Assembly: GCA_964016885.1 (NCBI GenBank)
Contig: OZ024745.1
Span: forward strand, 101,680,001-101,744,000
DNA length: 64,000 nt
Direction: 5' to 3'
Source of the DNA: Eledone cirrhosa
Lineage: Eukaryota
Below are positions 4,124 to 54,335 of this stretch, in pieces. How positions within the stretch are numbered: the first letter of the stretch is position 1; each line of letters opens with the position of its first letter. Under the pieces are notes generated by a model that did no database searches, was not told the DNA's origin, and was given only the letters and a program-made list of their open reading frames with translations. Both the position numbers and the translations under genes were made by a program.

Positions 4124-4269
4124 TACTCTCTTACCTGTTCCAGCCATCCGGCTGAGGCCAGACTGGGGCACCTATATATATTTTTAAAAAGTAAGAGGAA
4201 AGCACAAACGGGAGACAATCCCTTCATCAGTTGTCTGCTGGAGATCAGACATTTCAATGAAATGTCCCT

Positions 4270-6640
4270 TTGTGTTTTCCTCTTATTTTTAAATACACTT
4301 TATCAAGTAACCAGAACAACCTGCCATCCACTACACACCATCATAAACTGCAAGCAGGGTACAAATTGTTGTCCTTAAATGCTCGCAGTTTATGCAACAA
4401 GATACATCTGTTTAACTCCTACATCAGAAGCATCGACCCTGACGTCATCACAGTCACGGAAACATGGGCACATTCCTTACTCTGTGATGGGGTTTTCAGC
4501 ATTACTGGGTACAACCTGTTCCACAAGGACCGCATTAATCGCCGTGGTGGTGGTGTGATGGTCTACGTTCGTTCAAATTTATTGGTAATTCCTTGCGTTG
4601 ATTGGAACGAATCACAAGAAGTTTTTTTCTGTGACATACGTATGACCATGTCAACACTTCTGCTTGATGTTGTTTATCGCCCCCCCCCCCCCCCCCCCCC
4701 CCCAACATAAAAACTACCATCAGGACACACAGCTTTGCGATATCCTCAGAGCTGCTGCCAGGAAAACAGCTACTTATGTGTTTATTGCAGGTGACTTCAA
4801 TCATCCTGAGATCGATTGGGAAACCTTTCGTTGGCCACAAAGTGCAAACGATTTCCTTGAGCTAGTGCTGGACTCAAACTGGTCACAAGTAGTCACCTCT
4901 CCAACAAGAGGTGACAACACTTTGGACCTGCTCTTCACCACTACCCCTGAAGTGGTTATCAGTTGTACTACTGAGGAACATCTAGGCGACTCTGATCATG
5001 CTATGATCATTGCCAATCTGGCTCTTGCGGGCAGCAACAAAAACCAGAACCATCTCCAATCTGCTTGCTTTGATTGGAAGAAAGCAGATTGGAACTTGTA
5101 CTGCACTGAGCTACAGCGCCCAACCTGGCATGAGTTCTATAACTTTGGAGATGTGAACACTATACTCCAGAGCATCCTGGATTCAATATGGATGGCATGT
5201 GCAGCATCAGTGCCACGTAAGCAGAAAAATAACCACTGCAAAAGTGCAATTTGGGAAACTTCAGCGATCTGAAGTACCAGGAAAGAACGTCGGAATGCTG
5301 AACGGGAATATAAACTGCATAAATCAGATGCCAACAGAAAAAAGCGGAATAAATCTTCCAACCATCTCAAGCAAGTGACAAAGAAGGCAGTGCTTGAATT
5401 TGAACAGTGCATAGCAACCAATCCTGACAGTCAGGTGCTCTGGAAATATGTACATTCAAAGCAGAGACCTCACTCTCCAGTTGGACCTCTTCGCAATCCC
5501 CACACAAACCAGATCACTGACGATCCCAAAGAATGCGCAGAACTTGTTGCTGAGTGCTATTCAAGCATTTTTACTGTTGAAAACCAAAATGTACCATCTC
5601 CACCATCTCTAACATTAAATTCCATAACAACTATGGAATTTACACCTGCAATGCTGCGACGTCACCTTAAGAATAAGCGCAACTATGCCTCCCCTGGTCT
5701 TGATGGTGTTACATACCTGCTTCTCAAACGTGGCGGGTACTTCCTTTTGCACCAGCTTTCTTTCTTCTTTCAATACTGTCTCAACAATGGTGCTACTCCG
5801 GAGCAGTGGAAAACTGCCAGTGTCATTCCCCTGTTCAAAAAGGGCGACCGCACGTCACCTGTCAACTACCGTCCAGTGAGTTTTACTAGTTCTATTGCCA
5901 AACTGATGGAATCCTGTGTCAGGGAAACACTTTGGAACTTCTGGAGCTCTCACAGCCTCATCCGGCCCTCGCAATTTGGATTTATCCCTAACTCCAGCTG
6001 CTGTAATCAGCTTATCGAGTTCCTTGAAGACATTACTCGGATCACTGACAACGGCTCATGGATGTTGTTTACCTTGACTTCGCTAAGGCTTTTAATTCTG
6101 TGTCACACAACAAACTTATGGCAAAACTCTCTACAATGGGTGTGAAGGATGATCTTTTTAACTGGTTGAAATCCTTCATTTTCAGCCGAAAAGAGGTAGT
6201 CACGGTTCTAGGACTGCATTCTTCACCATATGAGATGTCATCTGTGTACCACAGGATCTCTTCTTGGTCCCTTTTTGTTTGTTGCATATATTAATGACAT
6301 AGATGCCAACTTAAAGAATGCCACGGTACTGAAATATGCGGATGACATCAAGCTGTACCTTGAAATCAAAAGGACAGATCCCGAAATCTATAACTCTTTC
6401 CTACAATCAGACCTGGACACAATGCAGCAATGAATCACAGACTGGCAACTGAAGCTGGCTGTTGACAAGTGTACCACCATGCATTTTTGGAGGAAAAATC
6501 CAGCGTCCACATACTCCCTCCACAACACTGATATCAAGAAGTCCTCTTGTGAACGTGACCTGGGCATTACTGTCAGCAGCGATTTGCGTTGGATAAAGGA
6601 CATCTCTAAAATTCTCAAGAAGGCTGAGGGTGTCCCCCTT
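4270..6640 (+). mobile_element. Decayed CR1/jockey-group LINE ORF2 (AP endonuclease + RT)
   Basis: LNARSL.NK, TETW, GGGV, GDFN, PTRGDNTLDL, SDH (APE); PLFKKGD..NYRPVS, YLDFAKAF, YADD, ERDLG (RT); split by frameshifts and stops. Confidence 0.92.
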
Positions 6641-7292: not shown

Positions 7293-8750
7293 AAAGGGGA
7301 TGCTTGGAGAGGAGCAATTATAAAACTGATAGATCAGGTTATGAAAGTGACAGAAAGGATTTTAGCACAACTAATTAGAGAAAGGTTCAAACTAGATGAG
7401 ATGCAGTTTGGTTTTGTGCCTGGGAAGAGTACAACAGATGCCCTCTTCTTGGTGAGACAATTGCCAGAGAGGTTCTTAGAGAAGAATAAGCCACTATACT
7501 TAGCCTTTGTTGACCTAGAGAAGGCCTTTGATAGGGTACCCCGATCTGTCATCTGGTTGTCCCTAAGGAAGCTAGGTGTTGAGTAATGGCTTGTGAGGAC
7601 AGTGCAAACTTTGTACAGAGGTACTCTCAGTAAAGTCAGGGTAGGAATGGAGTTTAGTGAGGAATTCCAGATACAAGTAGGAGTACATCAGGGTTCGGTC
7701 CTCAGCCCGCTCTTGTTCATTATAGTCCTCCAAGCCATAACAGAGGAGTTTAAGACTGGCTGTCCATGGGAACTTCTCTATGCTGACGATCTGGTTCTTA
7801 TAGCAGAATCAGCAGAAGAGCTAGAGAATAAATTTTGGCTATGGAAACAGCAGTTGGAAGCAAGAGGACTGAGAGTGAATCTAGCAAAGACAAAAGTGTT
7901 GATGAGTAGAAAAGAGGACAAAACCCTGATTCCATCAGGGAAATGGCCATGTTCGATATGCAGAAAAGGAACTGGCATAAATTCTATAAAATGCACACAA
8001 TGCAGATCCTGGGTACACAAGAGATGTAGCGGGATAGCAGGCAAACTAACAGGTAGGGAGAAATATGTATGCAGTAGATGTACAGGGAAATTAGACAGTA
8101 GAAGTCGCACTGATAGACACATTTTTCAAATGCAAGAGGGCGCTATAGAAGTGGTGGATAGCTTCCGGTACCTAGGAGATCAGATTAGCATGGGAGGAGG
8201 GTGTTCCGAGGCCATAGTATCTAGAATAAGGACGGGTTGGAAGAAGTTTAGGGAGCTGCTTCCTCTGTTGACGAAGAAGGGTTTCTCCCTGCGTACGAAA
8301 GGCCGGTTGTATGATGCCTGTGTGAGAAACGTGATGCTGCATGGTAGTGAGACATGGGCAGCAACTGCAGAGGATATGCGACGGCTGGAGAGAAATGAGG
8401 CAAGCATGCTCCGTTGGATGTGCAGTGTAAATGTGCGTGAACGACCCAGCATAAATGTGTTGCGAGAGAAACTGTGTCTGAGAGGGATAGAATGTAGTGT
8501 ACGGGAGAGGAGACAGGTGGTATGGACATGTGATGCGCATGGAGGATGACCGATGGGTGAAGAAGTGCCAGGAATTGCCAGTTGAAGGAAGACGTGGTAG
8601 AGGTAGAACATTGGCGGAGGTGGTGAGAACAGAACTCAGATCATTGAAGCTCACGGTGGAGATGACGAGGGACCGTGACGAGTGGAGAGATGCTGTGCTG
8701 AATAAGACCCGTCCCACCCTTGCAAGCAGGGAAAAGCGGACGTAAAATGA
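7289..8750 (+). mobile_element. RTE-type LINE subfamily A, 5'-truncated, with PHD finger in the RT C-terminus
   Basis: QFGF.PG.STTDA, FVDLEKAFDRVP, GVHQGSVLSP, LLYADDL, FRYLG, HGSETW, RWYGHV.R; the ORF runs almost to the 3' end (GCGGACGTAAAATGA). Confidence 0.93.
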
Positions 8751-27352: not shown

Positions 27353-27680
27353 GTAAGTATTGCCTACTTGTGATAGCTTATACTTTAGTGCGATGTATGT
27401 AGAAAGTATTTAAATGTCAGTTTACTTTCAGTAGAATGATGTTGTTGAAGTTACTTATAGTATTTCAATCTGATTTCTGTTCCAGACATAAATCCTTACA
27501 GAAGACAGCTTTTCTTTTACACCGGAAATCTATTTATTTGACTGATGTTTCTAAACATACTTGAATAATTTTTTTTTTCTGTCTTTTTTTTTTTTTGTTC
27601 CATTTACTTTATGAAACAGTTCTATAAAATCTTAAATGCTTATGTGTTGAAAGGAAGAACTATAGATACTGCAATGCTAT

Positions 27681-29859
27681 AATGATGACGGCGTACTTGC
27701 CATCACCGACGCTGATAAAAAGGTAGCTTGGAAGTGTCACTATGAAAGGCTACTAAATGAGGAGAATAAATGGGAGAAAGACAGTCTCCCCCACATCGAC
27801 CCAATAGAGGGACCAGCAGTGTTAGTCGAGGGTAGTATAATAAGTAAGGCAATCAAGGATATGAAGACGGGTAAGGCGGCTGGGCCTTCGGAAATAGTTG
27901 CTGAGATGCTGAAGGCATCTGGCACGGTGGGACACACCATGGTCACCCGGATAGTTAACCAAGTCGTACAGAATGGGGTTGTTCCGAAGGACTGGCATAG
28001 CAGTATCATCGTTAACTGTTATAAGGGTAAAGGAGATGCCCTAGATAGGAGTAACTATAGAGGCATTAAATTAATCGACCAGGTCATGAAGGTCACGGAA
28101 AAAGTAATAGCGCAACTAATCAGAGAGAGAATTGACCTAGATGAAATGCAGTTCGGGGTTTGTGTCAGGCAAAAGTACCACAGACGCTCTTTTCATTGTA
28201 CGTCAACTACAGGAGAAGTACCTAGCTAAAGGTAAACCCCTCTACTTAGCTTTTGTCGACTTGGAGAAAGCCTTCGACAGAGTCCCCCGTTCCATTATCT
28301 GGTGGGCCCTTAGAAAACTAGGTGTCGACAAATGGCTTGTGAGAGCTATACAAGCCATGTATAAAGAAACAGTCAGCAAGGTTAGAATTAACAACGAATA
28401 TAGTGAAGAGTTTAGCGTAAAAGTTGGCGTCCATCAGGGCTCTTTTCTCAGCCCCCTACTATTTATTATTGCCCTTCAGGCTATAACAGAGGAGTTCAAG
28501 ACCGGCTGCCCATGGGAACTCCTATACGCAGACGACCTGACACTCACAGTTGAATCAATGGCCGAGCTAGAGAAGAAATTCCAAACATGGAAGCATGGCC
28601 TAGAATCAAAAGGCCTTAAAATTAACCTGGCTAAGACTAAAGTTCTAGTTTGTAGGAAAGAAAATAAGGCGGCGGTCCCTTCCGGGAAATGGCCATTCTC
28701 AGTGTGTAGGAAAGGCGTAGGTAGAAACTCCATTTTATGTCCCAAATGCAAAGTATGGGTGCATAAAAGATGTAGTGGGATCACAGGTAAACTAACTAAG
28801 AACTTAGCTTTTACATGTGGGCGGTGCTCTGGTGCAATAAGTAGCAGCGAGTGCCCACAAAATACTAGCTCTTACAACTGCGCAGAGGGCTCTATAGAAA
28901 TAGTGGACAGCTTCCGTTACCTGGGTGACAAAATCAGCAGTGGGGGAGGGTGCTCTGAAAGTACAGTAGCTAGAGTCAGAACTGGATGGAAAAAGTTCAG
29001 AGAGCTTATACCACTATTAGCCGCTAAAGGGTTCTCCCTAAAAATGAAAGGCAGGTTGTATGATGCCTGCATACGAACAGCAATGTTGCATGGCAGTGAA
29101 ACCTGGGCATTGTGTGCAGAGGATATACACAGACTAGAGAGGAACGAAGCTTGCATGCTCCGCTGGATGTGCAATAGTAATATACGTGAACGGCAAAGCA
29201 TAAACGAACTAAGGAAAAAATTAGAAATAAGAGGGATCAGATGTTGTTTACTCAAGAGAAGGCTACGTTGGTATGGACACGTGATGCGCATGAAAGTCGA
29301 TAGCTGTATAACAAAGTGCAGGGCAATAAAGATAGACGGTAGCCACGGAATAGGCAGACCTAGAAAATCCTGGGACGAGCTGATAAACTCCAACCTCACA
29401 CACTTACACCTCTCCAAGACAATGTCACTGGACCGAGACCTTTGGCGGTACTCAGTAATAGAGAAGACCCGCCTTACCTAAATGCATAGTAAAACCTACT
29501 ACAGCCAGTAGACATCTCTAACAAAATACACCCCCGTCCCACCATCCCCACCCCATCCACACCACCCCCTCCTATGTAAAGTTATGTTGGTGCCACACCA
29601 TCCAGGCCGAAACAAATGAGATTGTGTAGGTGTCACGACAAAAAAACACACAGTCCACGCTGTAATGTGGCCGTGTAGGCAACACGGTAAAAACCTCCCA
29701 GACCCACACTGTAAATGTGGCTGGTGTTAGGAAGGGCATCCAACTGTAGAAAACCTGCCAGACAGTCCTATGCGAGCAAGACAATCACTCTTGCCTCAAG
29801 TGGGAATACCCCCGTCCAAACCCATGCAAGCGTGGAACACGGACGTTAAACGTTGATGA

Positions 29860-32779: not shown

Positions 32780-33573
32780 AAGTGGTTACACAAAAGTTAG
32801 TTCACCGGATCCTCAGCTCGTAATGGACATGGTTATATGGAACAGGAAGGACAACCGTACAAACGCGCATGCGCAGAAATGATCACTTCACACAGGCAAT
32901 ACTAAATTGCGTGCGAGAGGTGTGAGGGAGATAACTGCGAAGGTCCAAAAGTTTCTGGTTGATAAGAAAATTAGGATGTTGTTGTAATTCAATCCGGAGC
33001 TTTGTAGTTATGTAAGAGGTGTTTCCAGTTGTGAGGACAATGCGTGAAGAATTCATATCTTGTGTTTAGGCAATCACTATTGCGTAATCTCTTTAGAATA
33101 TTTATTCGTTCATAAATAAATAGTCCACACGACGGATTGCCCCTTGTGTATGGCTTGGACTTAGTGATGGCTTTCCATTGAATGGAGTAGTCTATACATG
33201 AGTCCTTGAGGGACCATACGTGGCTCGCGAGTTTCGTGGATGAACGTCTGTCCAGGTACCTAAAGGTTGATTGGTGGTTCAGGAAGCGTTCCTTAAATCA
33301 GTTCTCCGCCATACCCACATAGGATTTGACCTCCTGTGGTTGATTTGGTCGGTTGGACGTGACCACAGCTTCATAAACTACAGCAGGTGTGTTGCATTGC
33401 TGTTGAAGGGGACAAGCTTCGAGCTTACGGCAAGAGCACCCTGGTGGGGTGTTGCTCTTAGGGCTGTTGGTGATGTGGGCCTTCATGTTCTTAGCGCAGG
33501 AGTATCCTAGTTTTACTTTGTGTCGGTTAAAGATGGAGTGGTATTTATGACCTATGGGAAAGTGTCTATTGAA
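32780..33573 (-). mobile_element. Penelope-like element 3' part with C-terminal GIY-YIG endonuclease
   Basis: HSIFNRHKVKLGYSC..NM, CSC...CPL..C, VVYEA...YVGMAEN*FKERFLNH...TKLASHVWSLK...LNTRYE..HCPH; the frame continues to a stop at 32989. Confidence 0.85.
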
Positions 33574-47643: not shown

Positions 47644-49352
47644 TGCTTATACCAACTACTCATCTAAGAAGGAAGAGACTTTTTCAATTCTTTCATGACC
47701 TGGTGTCTGATAAAATACAGTTTCAATTAATTTTGAAAATAAGCAATACTTTTGTGGGATTTAGTAAAATAAGTAAGCTTTTATTTATTTAGCAATCTGT
47801 AAAGTTGCTGGCAATAGGAAGGACATCCAGCCATAGAAATCTTGCCAAACAAAGGGTGAAGATGTCTCTTCAGTTATGCCATAAATAAGATAACCTCCTT
47901 ATTACAAGTGCTATGATAAAACACATCCAGTACACTTTGTAAAGTGTGGAAATGTATGTAAGCAAGATACAGCACCCCAGCCAATCTAATTAAGTATTGA
48001 CATGATCTGTAAACCCCCCCCCCCCTCCATGCTATGATAGAAGACACTTTTCACAGGTGCCACACAGTAGTACCAAAGCCAGAACCATGTGATTCCAAAG
48101 TGAACTTCATTACCACACTGTTTAAGAGCCCATATATTTCCGATAAAGGCATTTTCTTTTTATTATTTTGCATTGGAGATTTTCTGAACCTGATGGTATA
48201 TAATTGAATTAATTAAGATTTCCATCTAATTGTATTCCATTGTTTTTTGTTCTGCACATTGCTCAAATTTTCTCATATGTTACATTTATTACATTTTAAA
48301 TTGTTAATTTTTTTCTATGTGAGATCTAGCTTTTGGCTACAAATACTCTATGTAAACATTTTTTATATCAACCTACTTGAGACCTTTCACTTTTGGTTCA
48401 ATGATACAAAACTTCCTGTTCTAAAGCATTCGTATTTAAATTAAAACCTTCCATCTCAATATAATTTTTAAGAAAAAGAAGAAATTTGGCTAAGTTACAT
48501 TCCTAACATTGGGTTAATAAGGAAAAGGTTAACTATTTTATTGAATGCCTCGGTTCTCGATTATTTTTTAAATAAACTAAATCACACGAACACTATATTT
48601 CATTAGAAACATGGTGAGAAAAGAGTTATAGTAGTTGTGCTTCTAGCTAAAAAATTGAACTGCCTGTTGGAAAATTCTGTTTTACTTTTGTATTGCACTG
48701 GAGAGAGAATAATTCACAATGACTTGTTTTCAAAAGGGATTAAGCTGTTGTTAACAACAGACAACAAGGTTAGATTAATCATCAATCATCAGTAGAAAAT
48801 CACTGGAGGGCTAAATTCATCATCAGTAAAAAAAAAAAAAAGTAAAGTTACTATAATTAGAAGATTTCTAAGAATGCTCTCATTACTATTTTGCTGTTTC
48901 TAGACATTGGGCTGTGATCATAGGGGGCGATATTGTGATTAATTGTAATTGCTGGTAATTAGCAGAGCTCTCAATTAATTAATTACCTTACAATTAGTCT
49001 TTTATTATAAAATTGATGTTTTCTTTATTTATTTATTTGTTTGTTTCTGATGGGATTTCATTTTGTCATTGATTAACATTTTATAATGCAAAAGTTCTCA
49101 TCAATTTGTAATTTTCTCAATGCTTCATTGCTAATGTTTCATTATTTTTTAAACTATACATTACTCTGGGATAAATTAAATTATGGCGTTATCTGGATCA
49201 TTGCATGGTGCCAGAAATTGAAATGTCATAACTCTTCTGTATGAAGAAAAAAAACTCTTTGACTTCTCAGTCATTGTAATTTTTTTGTCACTAGAGAAAG
49301 AATAGCAACTGAAGAGTTGTTTGATTGACTAAACTCAACTTAGTATATTAAA

Positions 49353-49566
49353 CCCTTTAGCACTTAAACCGGCCATATCTGACCAGAATTCTCTCACTTC
49401 TTTCTGTTCAAACTGGCTGTAACATGTTGCTCATAATGATGTTAAGGTATTGTTCTCAAAATAAATATATCTCATAGATTTGATATTATGTGAGATAATT
49501 ATGTGAAATAAAGCCTTTACCATGAAAATACAATAGTAAATATAGAGTAATGTAAATGGTGAAGGG
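49353..49566. mobile_element. piggyBac-like MITE, second copy
   Basis: Colinear with 3381-3596. Confidence 0.75.
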
Positions 49567-49689
49567 TTAAGTAAGGGTCAACTCTCTGGCCAATTGGATC
49601 TCAAAACAAGGGAAGGATCAAACTAAATACTGTCAATAGTTTTACTCTGGTATTCTGTTATCTTTACTAGTTTACACCATTTCAATTGA

Positions 49690-51246: not shown

Positions 51247-51280
<34 letters not shown>

Positions 51281-51372
51281 ATGTATATATAATGTATTTT
51301 GCAATACACTTTATTAAAAGCATGTTGAAGACCGTAAGCTATTGTTTTAAAGTAGTGACAAATTCACTGACT

Positions 51373-51469
51373 TTGATCTCAGCAAACAGGGGAGATAAGC
51401 CGACATGACATGTTTCGCTTTTGTTGAAGCTTATCAAGGCCAACTACCCCGCCTGTCTACTGAGATCAA
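51373..51469 (-). ncRNA. Second identical hammerhead copy on the minus strand
   Basis: Exact reverse complement of 51722-51818. Confidence 0.72.
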
Positions 51470-51721
51470 TGATGTTATATTCTTATAGAAATCTAGTAAA
51501 TAATCAAGTGAATTTGTCACTACTTTAAAACAATAGCTTACGGTCTTCAAAATGCTTTTAATTAAGCATAAAGTGTATTGCAAAATACATTATATATACA
51601 TCCATATATATATTGCTATTTCAGAGCTCCAATTCTAATTTTTAATTTCTGCCTGACCAACAACCGCTCTGCATAATCAGCTCCTGATTATTTACTAGAT
51701 TTCTATAAGAATATAACATCA

Positions 51722-51818
51722 TTGATCTCAGTAGACAGGCGGGGTAGTTGGCCTTGATAAGCTTCAACAAAAGCGAAACATGTCATGTCGGCTTATCTCC
51801 CCTGTTTGCTGAGATCAA
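51722..51818 (+). ncRNA. Type I hammerhead ribozyme, U3-A8 core variant
   Basis: Long stem I; core TTGATAA (51754-60); stem II GCTT-CAACAA-AAGC; GAA; stem III ACAT-GTC-ATGT; GUC site with predicted cleavage after 51789. Confidence 0.75.
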
Positions 51819-52689
51819 AGTGAGTGAATTTGTCACTACTTTAAAACAATAGCTTACGGTCTTCAAAATGCTTTTAATTAAGCATAAAGTGTATTGCAAA
51901 ATACATTATATATACATCCATATATATATTGCTATTTCAGAGCTCCAATTCTATATATATATATAATTTAGCTCTGGTACTTACATAGAGCACTCTTCAC
52001 TCCTATGACTTTTTCAATTTTCAACGGAAACTTCAATACTTATATATATATATACACACACACATGCACACACATATGCCTCTATGCTGCAGAAAATGTG
52101 TATGACAGTGTCTGTTTGTCATATCTATAATAAATAGAAGCAAAATGAATTGACAGAAGCATTAGAAGATCAGTGAAAATGCCTTTTGGATATTAAGTTT
52201 CATTCTTTTATGTCTAGAATATTGGAAAGACGAAAGTGATGACTGGTGGTAAAGCATGTGGTTGTGTGCAGAAACAGCAATATTAAATGTACAATACATA
52301 TTGCATGGATACATAGAAAATGTAGCAGTGTGAGAGCTTATTAAATACTGTGACAGTTACATTTGAGTGTAAGTTATATGAGGGGAGATGCAGAACGTTG
52401 AGATGGATATAAAAAATGGCATGAAAACTGAAGATGTAAAAACGTTTTCTTATATATAAGATATGTTGAATGAAGAAATAGATTGGTCTCGGCAACAGTA
52501 GCTAGAATGAGGTGCATATCCATGTCTTCCCATCAAACACTGCAATTTACTGTTTGTCTTCATCTCTCTGTGATGCTTCACTCATTCATCAAACTATTCT
52601 TATTTCCATTCTTTCTAACCTTCTCTAATGCTCTGAGTCAATCATTTCCATGCATTGTTATAACAATGCATGGAAAATTAAACTTGATT

Positions 52690-53310: not shown

Positions 53311-53405
53311 GCTATTCGATGTGTGCAGGCGATTATTGGTAGATGGATTATAAACACTATTTTTTATTTTCAACATAACCCTTTACTATTTACATTACTC
53401 TATAT

Positions 53406-53699
53406 CAGAGGTGTGCAACATATTTCATTGGCGGGCCACTCTGGAACATTGGAACAACTATTAGTGCCATTAATATTTATTAAGCACTATTCCAAAGATT
53501 CACCACAACTTCTTTCCATAACATGGAACTGGGAAATTATAACACACATAACCCTATCAGTGAAGCCCTTTAGTATAGGTCAACTATACAAATTATAAAT
53601 AAGCCTACAAGGTAAAAATTAAAAACGGTCACCGAGGGCCACTCTGACTGGTCTGATGGGCCGGATTGTGGCCTGTGGGCTGCTTGTTGCCTGCCCCTG
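53406..53699. mobile_element. hAT (Charlie-like) MITE
   Basis: TIRs CAGAGGTGTGCAAC / GTTGCCTGCCCCTG; exact 8-bp TSD CTCTATAT at 53398-53405 and 53700-53707. Confidence 0.85.
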
Positions 53700-54335
53700 C
53701 TCTATATGTACTATTGTATTTTGACTGTAAAGTCTTTACCTCACATAACCATCCCACATAATATCAAATGTACGAGATTTTAATATTATTTATTTAGAGA
53801 ACAATACCTTAACCTCAGTATAGGCGGCTACTTACCGCTGGTTTGAGCAGAAAGAGGTGAGAGAATTCTGGCCAGATACGGACGGTTTAAATGCTAAAGG
53901 GTTAATTGGAATCAACTAACAAAAGTGAATGTATTATTTTACAACTATTATCTTATTTATCTTATTTATTGCTATACTTAAAGTAAGAATTTATTCCGGC
54001 AAACAGTCTTTTATTTTTTATTGTTGGTTTCAGTAAGAATATCTGAAGCATTCAGTATGATATTCTCTAGAATTAATGGAACTCACTTATTAAATAAAAC
54101 AAATAACTCAAATCTTTCAGTAGATTTACTGACATGTTTTACATATTTTTTAATTGTATTTTTGTTCATATGTTCAATTCGTGTCTGTTGAAAGACTGAT
54201 AAATCTCAAATAGAAAATTCAAATATTGTTTTTATGATCTATGTAAGTGAATATAGTTCAACTGTGTATACTTAGAAATATACTTTATATTATTTTTTAT
54301 AGATCATTGTTTTATGTATTTTATATGCTTCTATA

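Follow-up and report, generated by a model that had tools for sequence, protein, structure and literature searches.

Metazoan non-LTR retrozymes have been proposed to spread when a circular RNA is reverse transcribed into tandem cDNA in a target-primed reaction, probably helped by Penelope elements (Cervera and de la Pena 2020, PMC7229834). A later preprint describes retrozymes as non-autonomous Penelope derivatives and states that the mechanism of their mobilization awaits working out (bioRxiv 10.64898/2026.07.22.740005). For Penelope elements themselves, in vitro work on Poseidon from the green anole (Frangieh et al., PMC11167929) revealed two adjacent internal start sites for the reverse transcriptase (RT) that define a tail of 30-40 bp. 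In that system both target strands are cut and extended, targets are AT-rich, and uncleaved RNA is the main substrate. Penelope-like insertions often carry a tail at one end only (Craig et al., PMC8557442), and the Cercyon elements of Schistosoma (PMC4209133) contain U3-A8 hammerheads, among which opposite-strand ribozyme pairs 100-700 bp apart were noted. These accounts leave open which enzyme moves animal retrozymes, whether a circle serves as template, and how the inverted, tandem, and tailed insertions of Penelope elements originate.

The window analysed here is a stretch of 64,000 nucleotides from Eledone cirrhosa. Positions 51269-51953 of this window are one insertion of a young, non-coding repeat family whose unit of 316/317 bp has a GC content of 34.5% (Table 1). 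Like the metazoan non-LTR retrozymes (PMC7229834), the family combines a low-GC tandem unit in the range of 150-450 bp with a predicted type I hammerhead and no open reading frame (ORF). However, the retrozymes of coral, mussel, and axolotl in that report come with RNA data, whereas the 316-bp family is described here from genome sequence.

Much of the anatomy given in the original prediction was confirmed. The 131-bp direct repeats (51507-51637 and 51823-51953) are 100% identical and spaced 316 bp apart, and an inverted copy meets the direct arm at a joint that proves to be blunt, although this copy measures 238 bp rather than about 235 bp. As claimed, (AT)n runs lie outside both ends of the insertion, and no coding remnant is present, the longest stop-free stretch in a trimer of the unit being 46 aa. 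Ribozyme copies are predicted on both arms from Rfam HH9 matches below the gathering score on the plus and minus strands. The proposed monomer, 51507-51822, holds as to its 316-bp period but not as to its phase, which is merely where the junction fell in the window copy; a monomer start defined by the ribozyme would be 51790. Unit positions are nonetheless numbered here from 51507 (position 1), with 51507-51822 as the unit. This unit recurs letter for letter in four other collected loci, and the inverted arm departs from it by a 7-bp deletion (unit 55-61) and one substitution.

The 3′ ends of both window arms face outward. Because the window copy has only one ribozyme on each strand, no monomer can be released from it, and it represents a dead end. 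It had also been suggested that the two arms could fold back into double-stranded RNA that masks cleavage. In a predicted read-through transcript, 36 of 36 core positions would indeed pair with the inverted arm. Such pairing follows from the geometry of insertion and needs no function, and the inversion looks like a by-product of insertion rather than a device for masking.

Other repeats surround this insertion. It is enclosed by older inverted arms (49351-49572 and 53373-53903) that are 82-91% complementary and about 4 kb apart, one of them interrupted by an insert of approximately 290 bp. Elsewhere in the window are broken reading frames of LINE-type endonuclease/RT (4261-6145, 7587-8549, and 27666-29481).

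Table 1. Features of the insertion and of the Penelope fragment in the window (window coordinates; S and L denote the short and long end sites)
Feature	Position	Strand	Remarks
Hydra-like Penelope 3′ fragment	32780-33573	-	Family with 3592 first-look candidates
Left (AT)n target tract	51249..51268	.	AT run of 20 beyond arm end
Inverted S arm, 238 bp, unit 179-316 + 1-107	51269..51506	-	3′ end at short start site
Hammerhead, minus copy, extended stem I (predicted)	51373..51470	-	HH9 match 51381-51451; predicted cut 51402/51401
Head-to-head arm junction, blunt, unit 179 / unit 1	51506..51507	.	
Direct L arm, 447 bp, full 316-bp unit + unit 1-131	51507..51953	+	3′ end at long start site
Segment of 27 nt conserved in related families	51664..51690	+	Possibly an RT-binding element
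Type I hammerhead, extended stem I (predicted)	51721..51818	+	Predicted cut after C51789
(AT)5 within unit, short (S) end site	51920..51929	+	Could anneal to (AT)n target end
Tail, direct arm only, S to L site	51930..51953	+	24 nt here, usually 26-33
Right (TA)n target tract	51954..51965	.	AT run of 12

The Rfam scan of the window returned no match at the gathering score. The HH9 matches on the plus strand (51740-51810) and on the minus strand reach 30.4 bits (E = 1.7e-5), short of the gathering score of 52. The predicted hammerhead has a core (51754-51760) of the U3-A8 variant, a 4-bp stem II (51761-51774), a 4-bp stem III (51778-51788), and a GUC cut site. When 12 hammerheads were aligned, 94% of cells were paired and double changes occurred in 11 of 23 pairs, including all four pairs of stem II and an exchange of U3-A8 for C3-G8. 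None of 500 shuffles scored as high, and slid controls gave 26-45%. Since the alignment comprises the window hammerhead and 11 hand-picked, intact-looking relatives, which are kin sequences with a structure taken from one, these figures offer support and not a probability. Helices I-III and the 3-8 pair thus covary across older relatives in the manner of a type I hammerhead. The predicted active fold lies 5.4 kcal/mol above the minimum-energy rod, in the linear form and the circle alike. Covariation at the U3-A8 core is common to Cercyon and the 316-bp family, but Cercyon ribozymes are of the minimal, dimer type (PMC4209133), whereas the 4-bp stem III of the present family makes a monomer fold possible. 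We considered whether stem III arose from a duplication of 5 nt and dropped the idea, since the relatives show a series of substitutions. Stem/loop III also contains a mutation hot spot (unit 273-279, window 51779-51785), in which position 278 changed independently 12 times and position 273 six times among the loci of set 1, defined below.

The original prediction would have been refuted by a single-copy sequence, or by copies that were all termini of full-length Penelope elements with no monomer-sized RNA; neither genomic condition applied. A BLAST check of copy number revealed a sequence that is multi-copy, tandem, and non-coding, with a predicted type I hammerhead. The search covered a genome of 3.0 Gb in 1796 contigs, where the unit gave 135 matches of 95-100% identity (38 of 855 candidates scored). 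The exact ribozyme core has 486 genome matches, a large share of them inside one array, compared to 0 for a reversed-pattern control, and exact junctions between the long end and (AT)n number 412. Given that the commonest type of L end accounts for about half of long ends (28/50), we estimate that the genome holds roughly 700-1000 insertions, of which about 160 were read. Arms holding two ribozymes make up 37 of 107, and 31 of 59 loci have at least one such arm. In 193 collected records that contain unit-like sequence, no unit is immediately preceded by a Penelope ORF in the sense direction; the single Penelope ORF match near a unit is set apart from it by a 36-nt AT run. Nor do the repeats enclose or follow an ORF for RT plus GIY-YIG endonuclease, as they would in an autonomous Penelope element. 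Older relatives in the same genome (77-95% identity) are also pure unit tandems, and a degenerate motif of the conserved 27-nt segment has 2925 genome matches. We looked for an imprint of A-to-I editing in the copies and rejected it (18 A>G changes versus 22 T>C).

Several further observations concern related sequences. The family also occurs at high depth in contigs of one further run and as low-depth traces in three others, which were not weighed as evidence. The flanking DNA of the collected loci carries hammerhead motifs of many types, which suggests that Penelope-type ends are very abundant in this genome. A second tandem hammerhead repeat, unrelated to the first and with a period of 469 bp and a C3-G8 core (L168:193-1131, L097:3710-4180), is another retrozyme candidate. 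Further short hammerhead elements with two arms are E4, whose core is U3-A8, and E3 (L138:2541-2940 and L075:2682-3162), and their long ends terminate in the same five letters as the main L end of the 316-bp family.

Insertions of the family follow a strict rule of two inverted arms whose 3′ ends point outward into (AT)n, with one arm terminating at S and the other at L. S ends fall at unit 89-115 (mostly 107) and L ends at 120-142 (mostly 133), leaving a tail of 24-35 nt, usually 26-33 nt, to which up to 10 nt may be added as the S end sits in an AT run. Set 1 consists of 62 non-overlapping loci selected by their rank in BLAST or by an exact match to the core. The S/L combination was present in 49 of its 50 loci with both ends classifiable (one of these S/L loci is a segmental duplicate); the remainder are one S/S locus, classified through a spurious 26-bp arm, seven one-armed loci, and five with an unclassifiable end. 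Set 2 comprises 84 L-anchored ends from the first 100 of the 412 junctions, excluding loci already collected. There the far end is S in 62 of 63 classifiable pairs, one of the 62 being a doubtful 29-bp arm. The other far ends are one at position 127 that lacks an AT flank, seven truncated elsewhere, and 14 that are absent, including one at the edge of the collected sequence and one at an assembly gap. Choosing sites by coin flip would produce about half L/L, unlike the pairing observed. An AT run of at least 8 follows the L end in 47 of 48 cases, and such runs are present at both flanks in 38 of 48.

By analogy with described insertions, the S/L pattern is the footprint of a Penelope-type tail at one end, and the collected loci contain the Penelope-type combination of an inverted, 5′-truncated copy and a partial tandem. 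On the strength of this footprint, we classify the family as a non-LTR retrozyme that is likely to be moved in trans by a Penelope-type RT, which would prime from the two strands of the target. The coding Penelope families of the genome show the same two-end pattern, as in eight of nine two-armed loci of a family termed N1, judged by their ends, and in examples from the N2 and Hydra-like families.

Comparing the two arms of each locus provides information about the template. At nine diagnostic sites the arms agree in 48 of 50 loci, versus a fraction of 0.29 in shuffles. Divergence between arms is 1.2% within loci and 3.6% between them (91 loci, three of which exceed 4%), and private variants are present in both arms of loci L071, L281, and L291. 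Dominance of one source locus in a cell could explain this concordance of haplotypes, but not the pairing of S with L. The predicted cut site is crossed by 100 of 107 arms, and 3 of 109 arms have their 5′ end there, compared to 3.1 expected. We therefore reject a cleaved linear monomer as the template, because arms cross the cut site with no enrichment of stops at that point. Among 51 arm junctions, 28 have microhomology of at least 2 nt, 15 are blunt, and 8 contain inserts, some of them templated, a pattern such as would be expected from end-joining of two cDNAs.

The distribution of variants among units is less uniform. Lineage variants occur 382 times in all covering units, 19 times in some units, and 131 times as single-unit occurrences, and a 2069-bp arm in locus L044 carries one haplotype throughout its 6.5 units. 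For private variants the split is five in some units versus four in all, and for rare variants it is eight versus nine. In locus L042, two partially shared variants are in register in both arms. Variants confined to some units of a locus cannot come from a single monomer circle; their partial sharing needs multimer templates or later conversion. In addition, a ribozyme-less 163-bp derivative of an older relative forms a 3.7-unit tandem with an L-site end in (AT)n (L108:2384-3010). Weighing these data, along with the fact that only 37 of 107 arms contain two ribozymes and that the large array described below appears not to be the source, we lean slightly toward a circular template over an uncleaved multimer.

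The original prediction had invoked a Penelope RT for the mobilization of a small ribozyme RNA and had pointed to the Penelope fragment in the window. Although the Penelope-type insertion anatomy was found, the link to that fragment fails. It belongs to a Hydra-like family that has its own ribozyme, a tail of about 65 nt, and no similarity to the unit. The family, whose copies are 92-95% identical, includes a C-terminal endonuclease, a CxCX5C linker, a hammerhead with a C3-G8 core, and a (TA)n target, and its copy in the window is missing 27 bp of the hammerhead. Judged by sequence, the fragment's family is older than the 316-bp family and unrelated to it. Clade names such as Hydra-like and Neptune-like are given here from motifs compared with published descriptions, and Pfam gave no family for the Hydra-like or N1 ORFs. 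A profile of the unit searched against three coding Penelope families gave a best E value of 0.28 (positive control, 1.5e-53), and the genome holds further Penelope families beyond these three.

One of the coding families offers a lead to a helper. N1 is a young, Neptune-like family with (TA)n targets, a 56-nt tail, open frames of 1241 and 1180 aa, and full-length copies that are about 97% alike (L216:1774-5496, L212). Its 3′ end replaces the missing arm in two hybrid insertions, one of the young 316-bp family (L041, joint at 1797/1799) and one of an older family (L097, 2196-2267), whose joints are head-to-head with no AT run between. N1 copies are 94-98% identical to the N1 arm in these hybrids, and in L097 retrozyme fragments lie at the 5′ end of that arm. 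Further hybrids pair a retrozyme arm with N2 (L108, 2371-2407) or with another ribozyme element (L065, 1892-2225), while L246 is doubtful; three hybrids have L+L ends. These four or five hybrids indicate that two templates can end up in one insertion, although they could also arise when neighbouring elements in one (AT)n tract are fused by a deletion. N1 is thus a lead only, given that its 56-nt tail differs from the 26-33 nt of the 316-bp family, that the two have no sequence in common, and that N2 hybrids exist as well.

One large assemblage of units is a 54-kb array at about G000:C2:207686320-207740009 (L076, L046, L047, L077, L316, and L317). Its approximately 170 units alternate between 316 and 304 bp and include a recurring 183-bp insert. 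Both ends of the array lie in (AT)n, the first being an inverted L arm and the last an S end. This satellite therefore obeys the S/L rule and is a clear example of a single insertion giving rise to a 54-kb satellite. The possibility that the array is the source of the dispersed copies is not supported, since a deletion marker present in 65 of its units is absent from all other collected loci.

We propose, with a probability of roughly 0.78, that this is a young, non-coding hammerhead-repeat family mobilized in trans by a Penelope-like RT-endonuclease, through two cDNAs primed on one RNA at two sites. Arms with two ribozymes, which are observed, would be transcribed and would self-cleave to a monomer, and a host ligase would circularize it, as judged from other animal retrozymes. 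Within an (AT)n microsatellite the enzyme would cleave both strands. Base pairing of one target end with the (AU)5 of the unit would prime synthesis at the fixed S site, and from the other end synthesis would begin 26-33 nt further downstream, at the equally fixed L site, with a homology of 1-3 nt. Both RTs would then pass the cleavage site, as the continuity of the arms attests, and stop at the random points that the arm ends record. The two cDNA ends would be joined head-to-head, mostly at microhomology as seen in the junctions, by a presumed end-joining route. Rarely, one arm would later expand at the DNA level into a satellite, as in the single 54-kb case. A more specific version can be offered tentatively, with appreciably less confidence: the insertions would be a rolling-circle footprint, in which an RT dimer primes both strands of the cut (AT)n on a single 316-nt circle, both RTs roll, and the resulting concatemeric cDNAs are end-joined, with N1, to which the hybrid insertions point, as helper.

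An alternative that retains the same family and the two-site priming would replace the circle with an uncleaved linear multimer transcribed from tandem copies, leaving the ribozyme dispensable for insertion and circles as a side product. This is a serious contender, if on the unlikely side. Ribozyme mutants left insertion unaffected in the anole Penelope assay (PMC11167929), and both the ribozyme-less tandem with its L-site end and the variants partly shared among units, in register in both arms of L042, are as such a template would have them. However, 5′ truncation of a linear multimer would leave shorter arms after every round, and arms of 1.3-2.1 kb are nevertheless present. Almost all lineage variants are fixed across the units, the hammerhead has been kept by compensatory change across families, and the one large array examined, of 54 kb, is not the source. 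It is less probable still that an RT dimer held two separate RNAs and that each arm was copied from one of them, the haplotypes of the arms matching through a dominant source locus in the germ cell. The head-to-head hybrids with N1, N2, and another ribozyme element speak for this arrangement, as do the retrozyme fragments in the N1 arm of L097. Independent RNAs, however, give no reason for one S and one L end, and they sit poorly with private variants in both arms; moreover, the three L+L hybrids depart from the S+L pattern, and deletions within one (AT)n tract can account for hybrids.

If the copies were solo or partial pseudo-LTRs, that is, 5′-truncated ends of an unseen coding Penelope element, then their anatomy would be that of ordinary Penelope insertions (PMC8557442), as it is, and such an element might have escaped notice among the insertions beyond the approximately 160 read. 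We nevertheless regard this as very improbable, since long arms run into further units and never into an ORF, no upstream sense Penelope ORF was present in the 193 records, and the older relatives are likewise pure tandems of the unit. An ordinary satellite, with inversions and tandems produced by fold-back and unequal exchange at the DNA level and with a hammerhead-like motif present by chance, can draw on the higher-order expansion of the one 54-kb array and on the Rfam score below threshold. The S/L ends, fixed at (AT)n sites that are scattered over many contigs, the outward-facing 3′ ends, and the covarying helices make this reading scarcely credible, and even the array opens with an L arm and closes at an S end.

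The proposed two-site priming by a Penelope-like enzyme on one retrozyme RNA has points of contact with each of the described systems. With Poseidon (PMC11167929) the 316-bp family has in common two start sites, a tail, and AT-rich targets. However, Poseidon is autonomous and starts in an AC-rich loop that lacks homology to the target, whereas the present family is non-coding and its S site has 10 nt of (AT) homology. Among the non-autonomous elements Chlamys and MRC1 (PMC8557442), Chlamys elements share 3′ ends with their partners and are mostly devoid of hammerheads, in contrast to the 316-bp family, which has kept its predicted hammerhead and has no detected sequence in common with the families compared. 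The retrozymes of the preprint (bioRxiv 10.64898/2026.07.22.740005) resemble ours in their monomer, dimer, and multimer copies, their co-occurrence with Penelope elements, and the birth of satellites by later unequal crossover. There the link to Penelope was drawn from co-occurrence and from similarity of pseudo-LTRs across 35 species, with no mollusc among them, whereas here it consists of insertion anatomy and hybrids, and no pseudo-LTR similarity to the three coding families compared was found.

Neither the class of element, nor its U3-A8 core, nor a tail at one end only is new. The main text of PMC7229834 lacks the words "inverted," "microsatellite," and "rolling," and it contains no description of insertions with two arms in the S/L arrangement or of targeting to (AT)n. 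The main text of an Octopus vulgaris repeat paper likewise lacks "hammerhead," "ribozyme," and "retrozyme." In the literature searched, which excludes subscription papers and the supplements of PMC7229834 and the 2026 preprint, we found no cephalopod retrozyme and no two-armed retrozyme insertion. Nor did that literature yield a quantification of S/L pairing in a retrozyme, arms matched by haplotype, arms that read through the cut site, a satellite derived from one insertion, or hybrids.

The family is young, short, and abundant enough that a mechanism can be read off hundreds of insertions, and the S/L rule, the haplotypes of the arms, and read-through of the cleavage site are all measurable in it. 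A candidate helper with an open ORF resides in the same genome and an in vitro assay has been published, which makes directly testable both the question of the enzyme and circular template of retrozymes and that of how the inverted, tandem, and tailed Penelope insertions are made. If the rolling-circle reading is true, then one event can seed a satellite, and a helper would share no sequence with its parasite.
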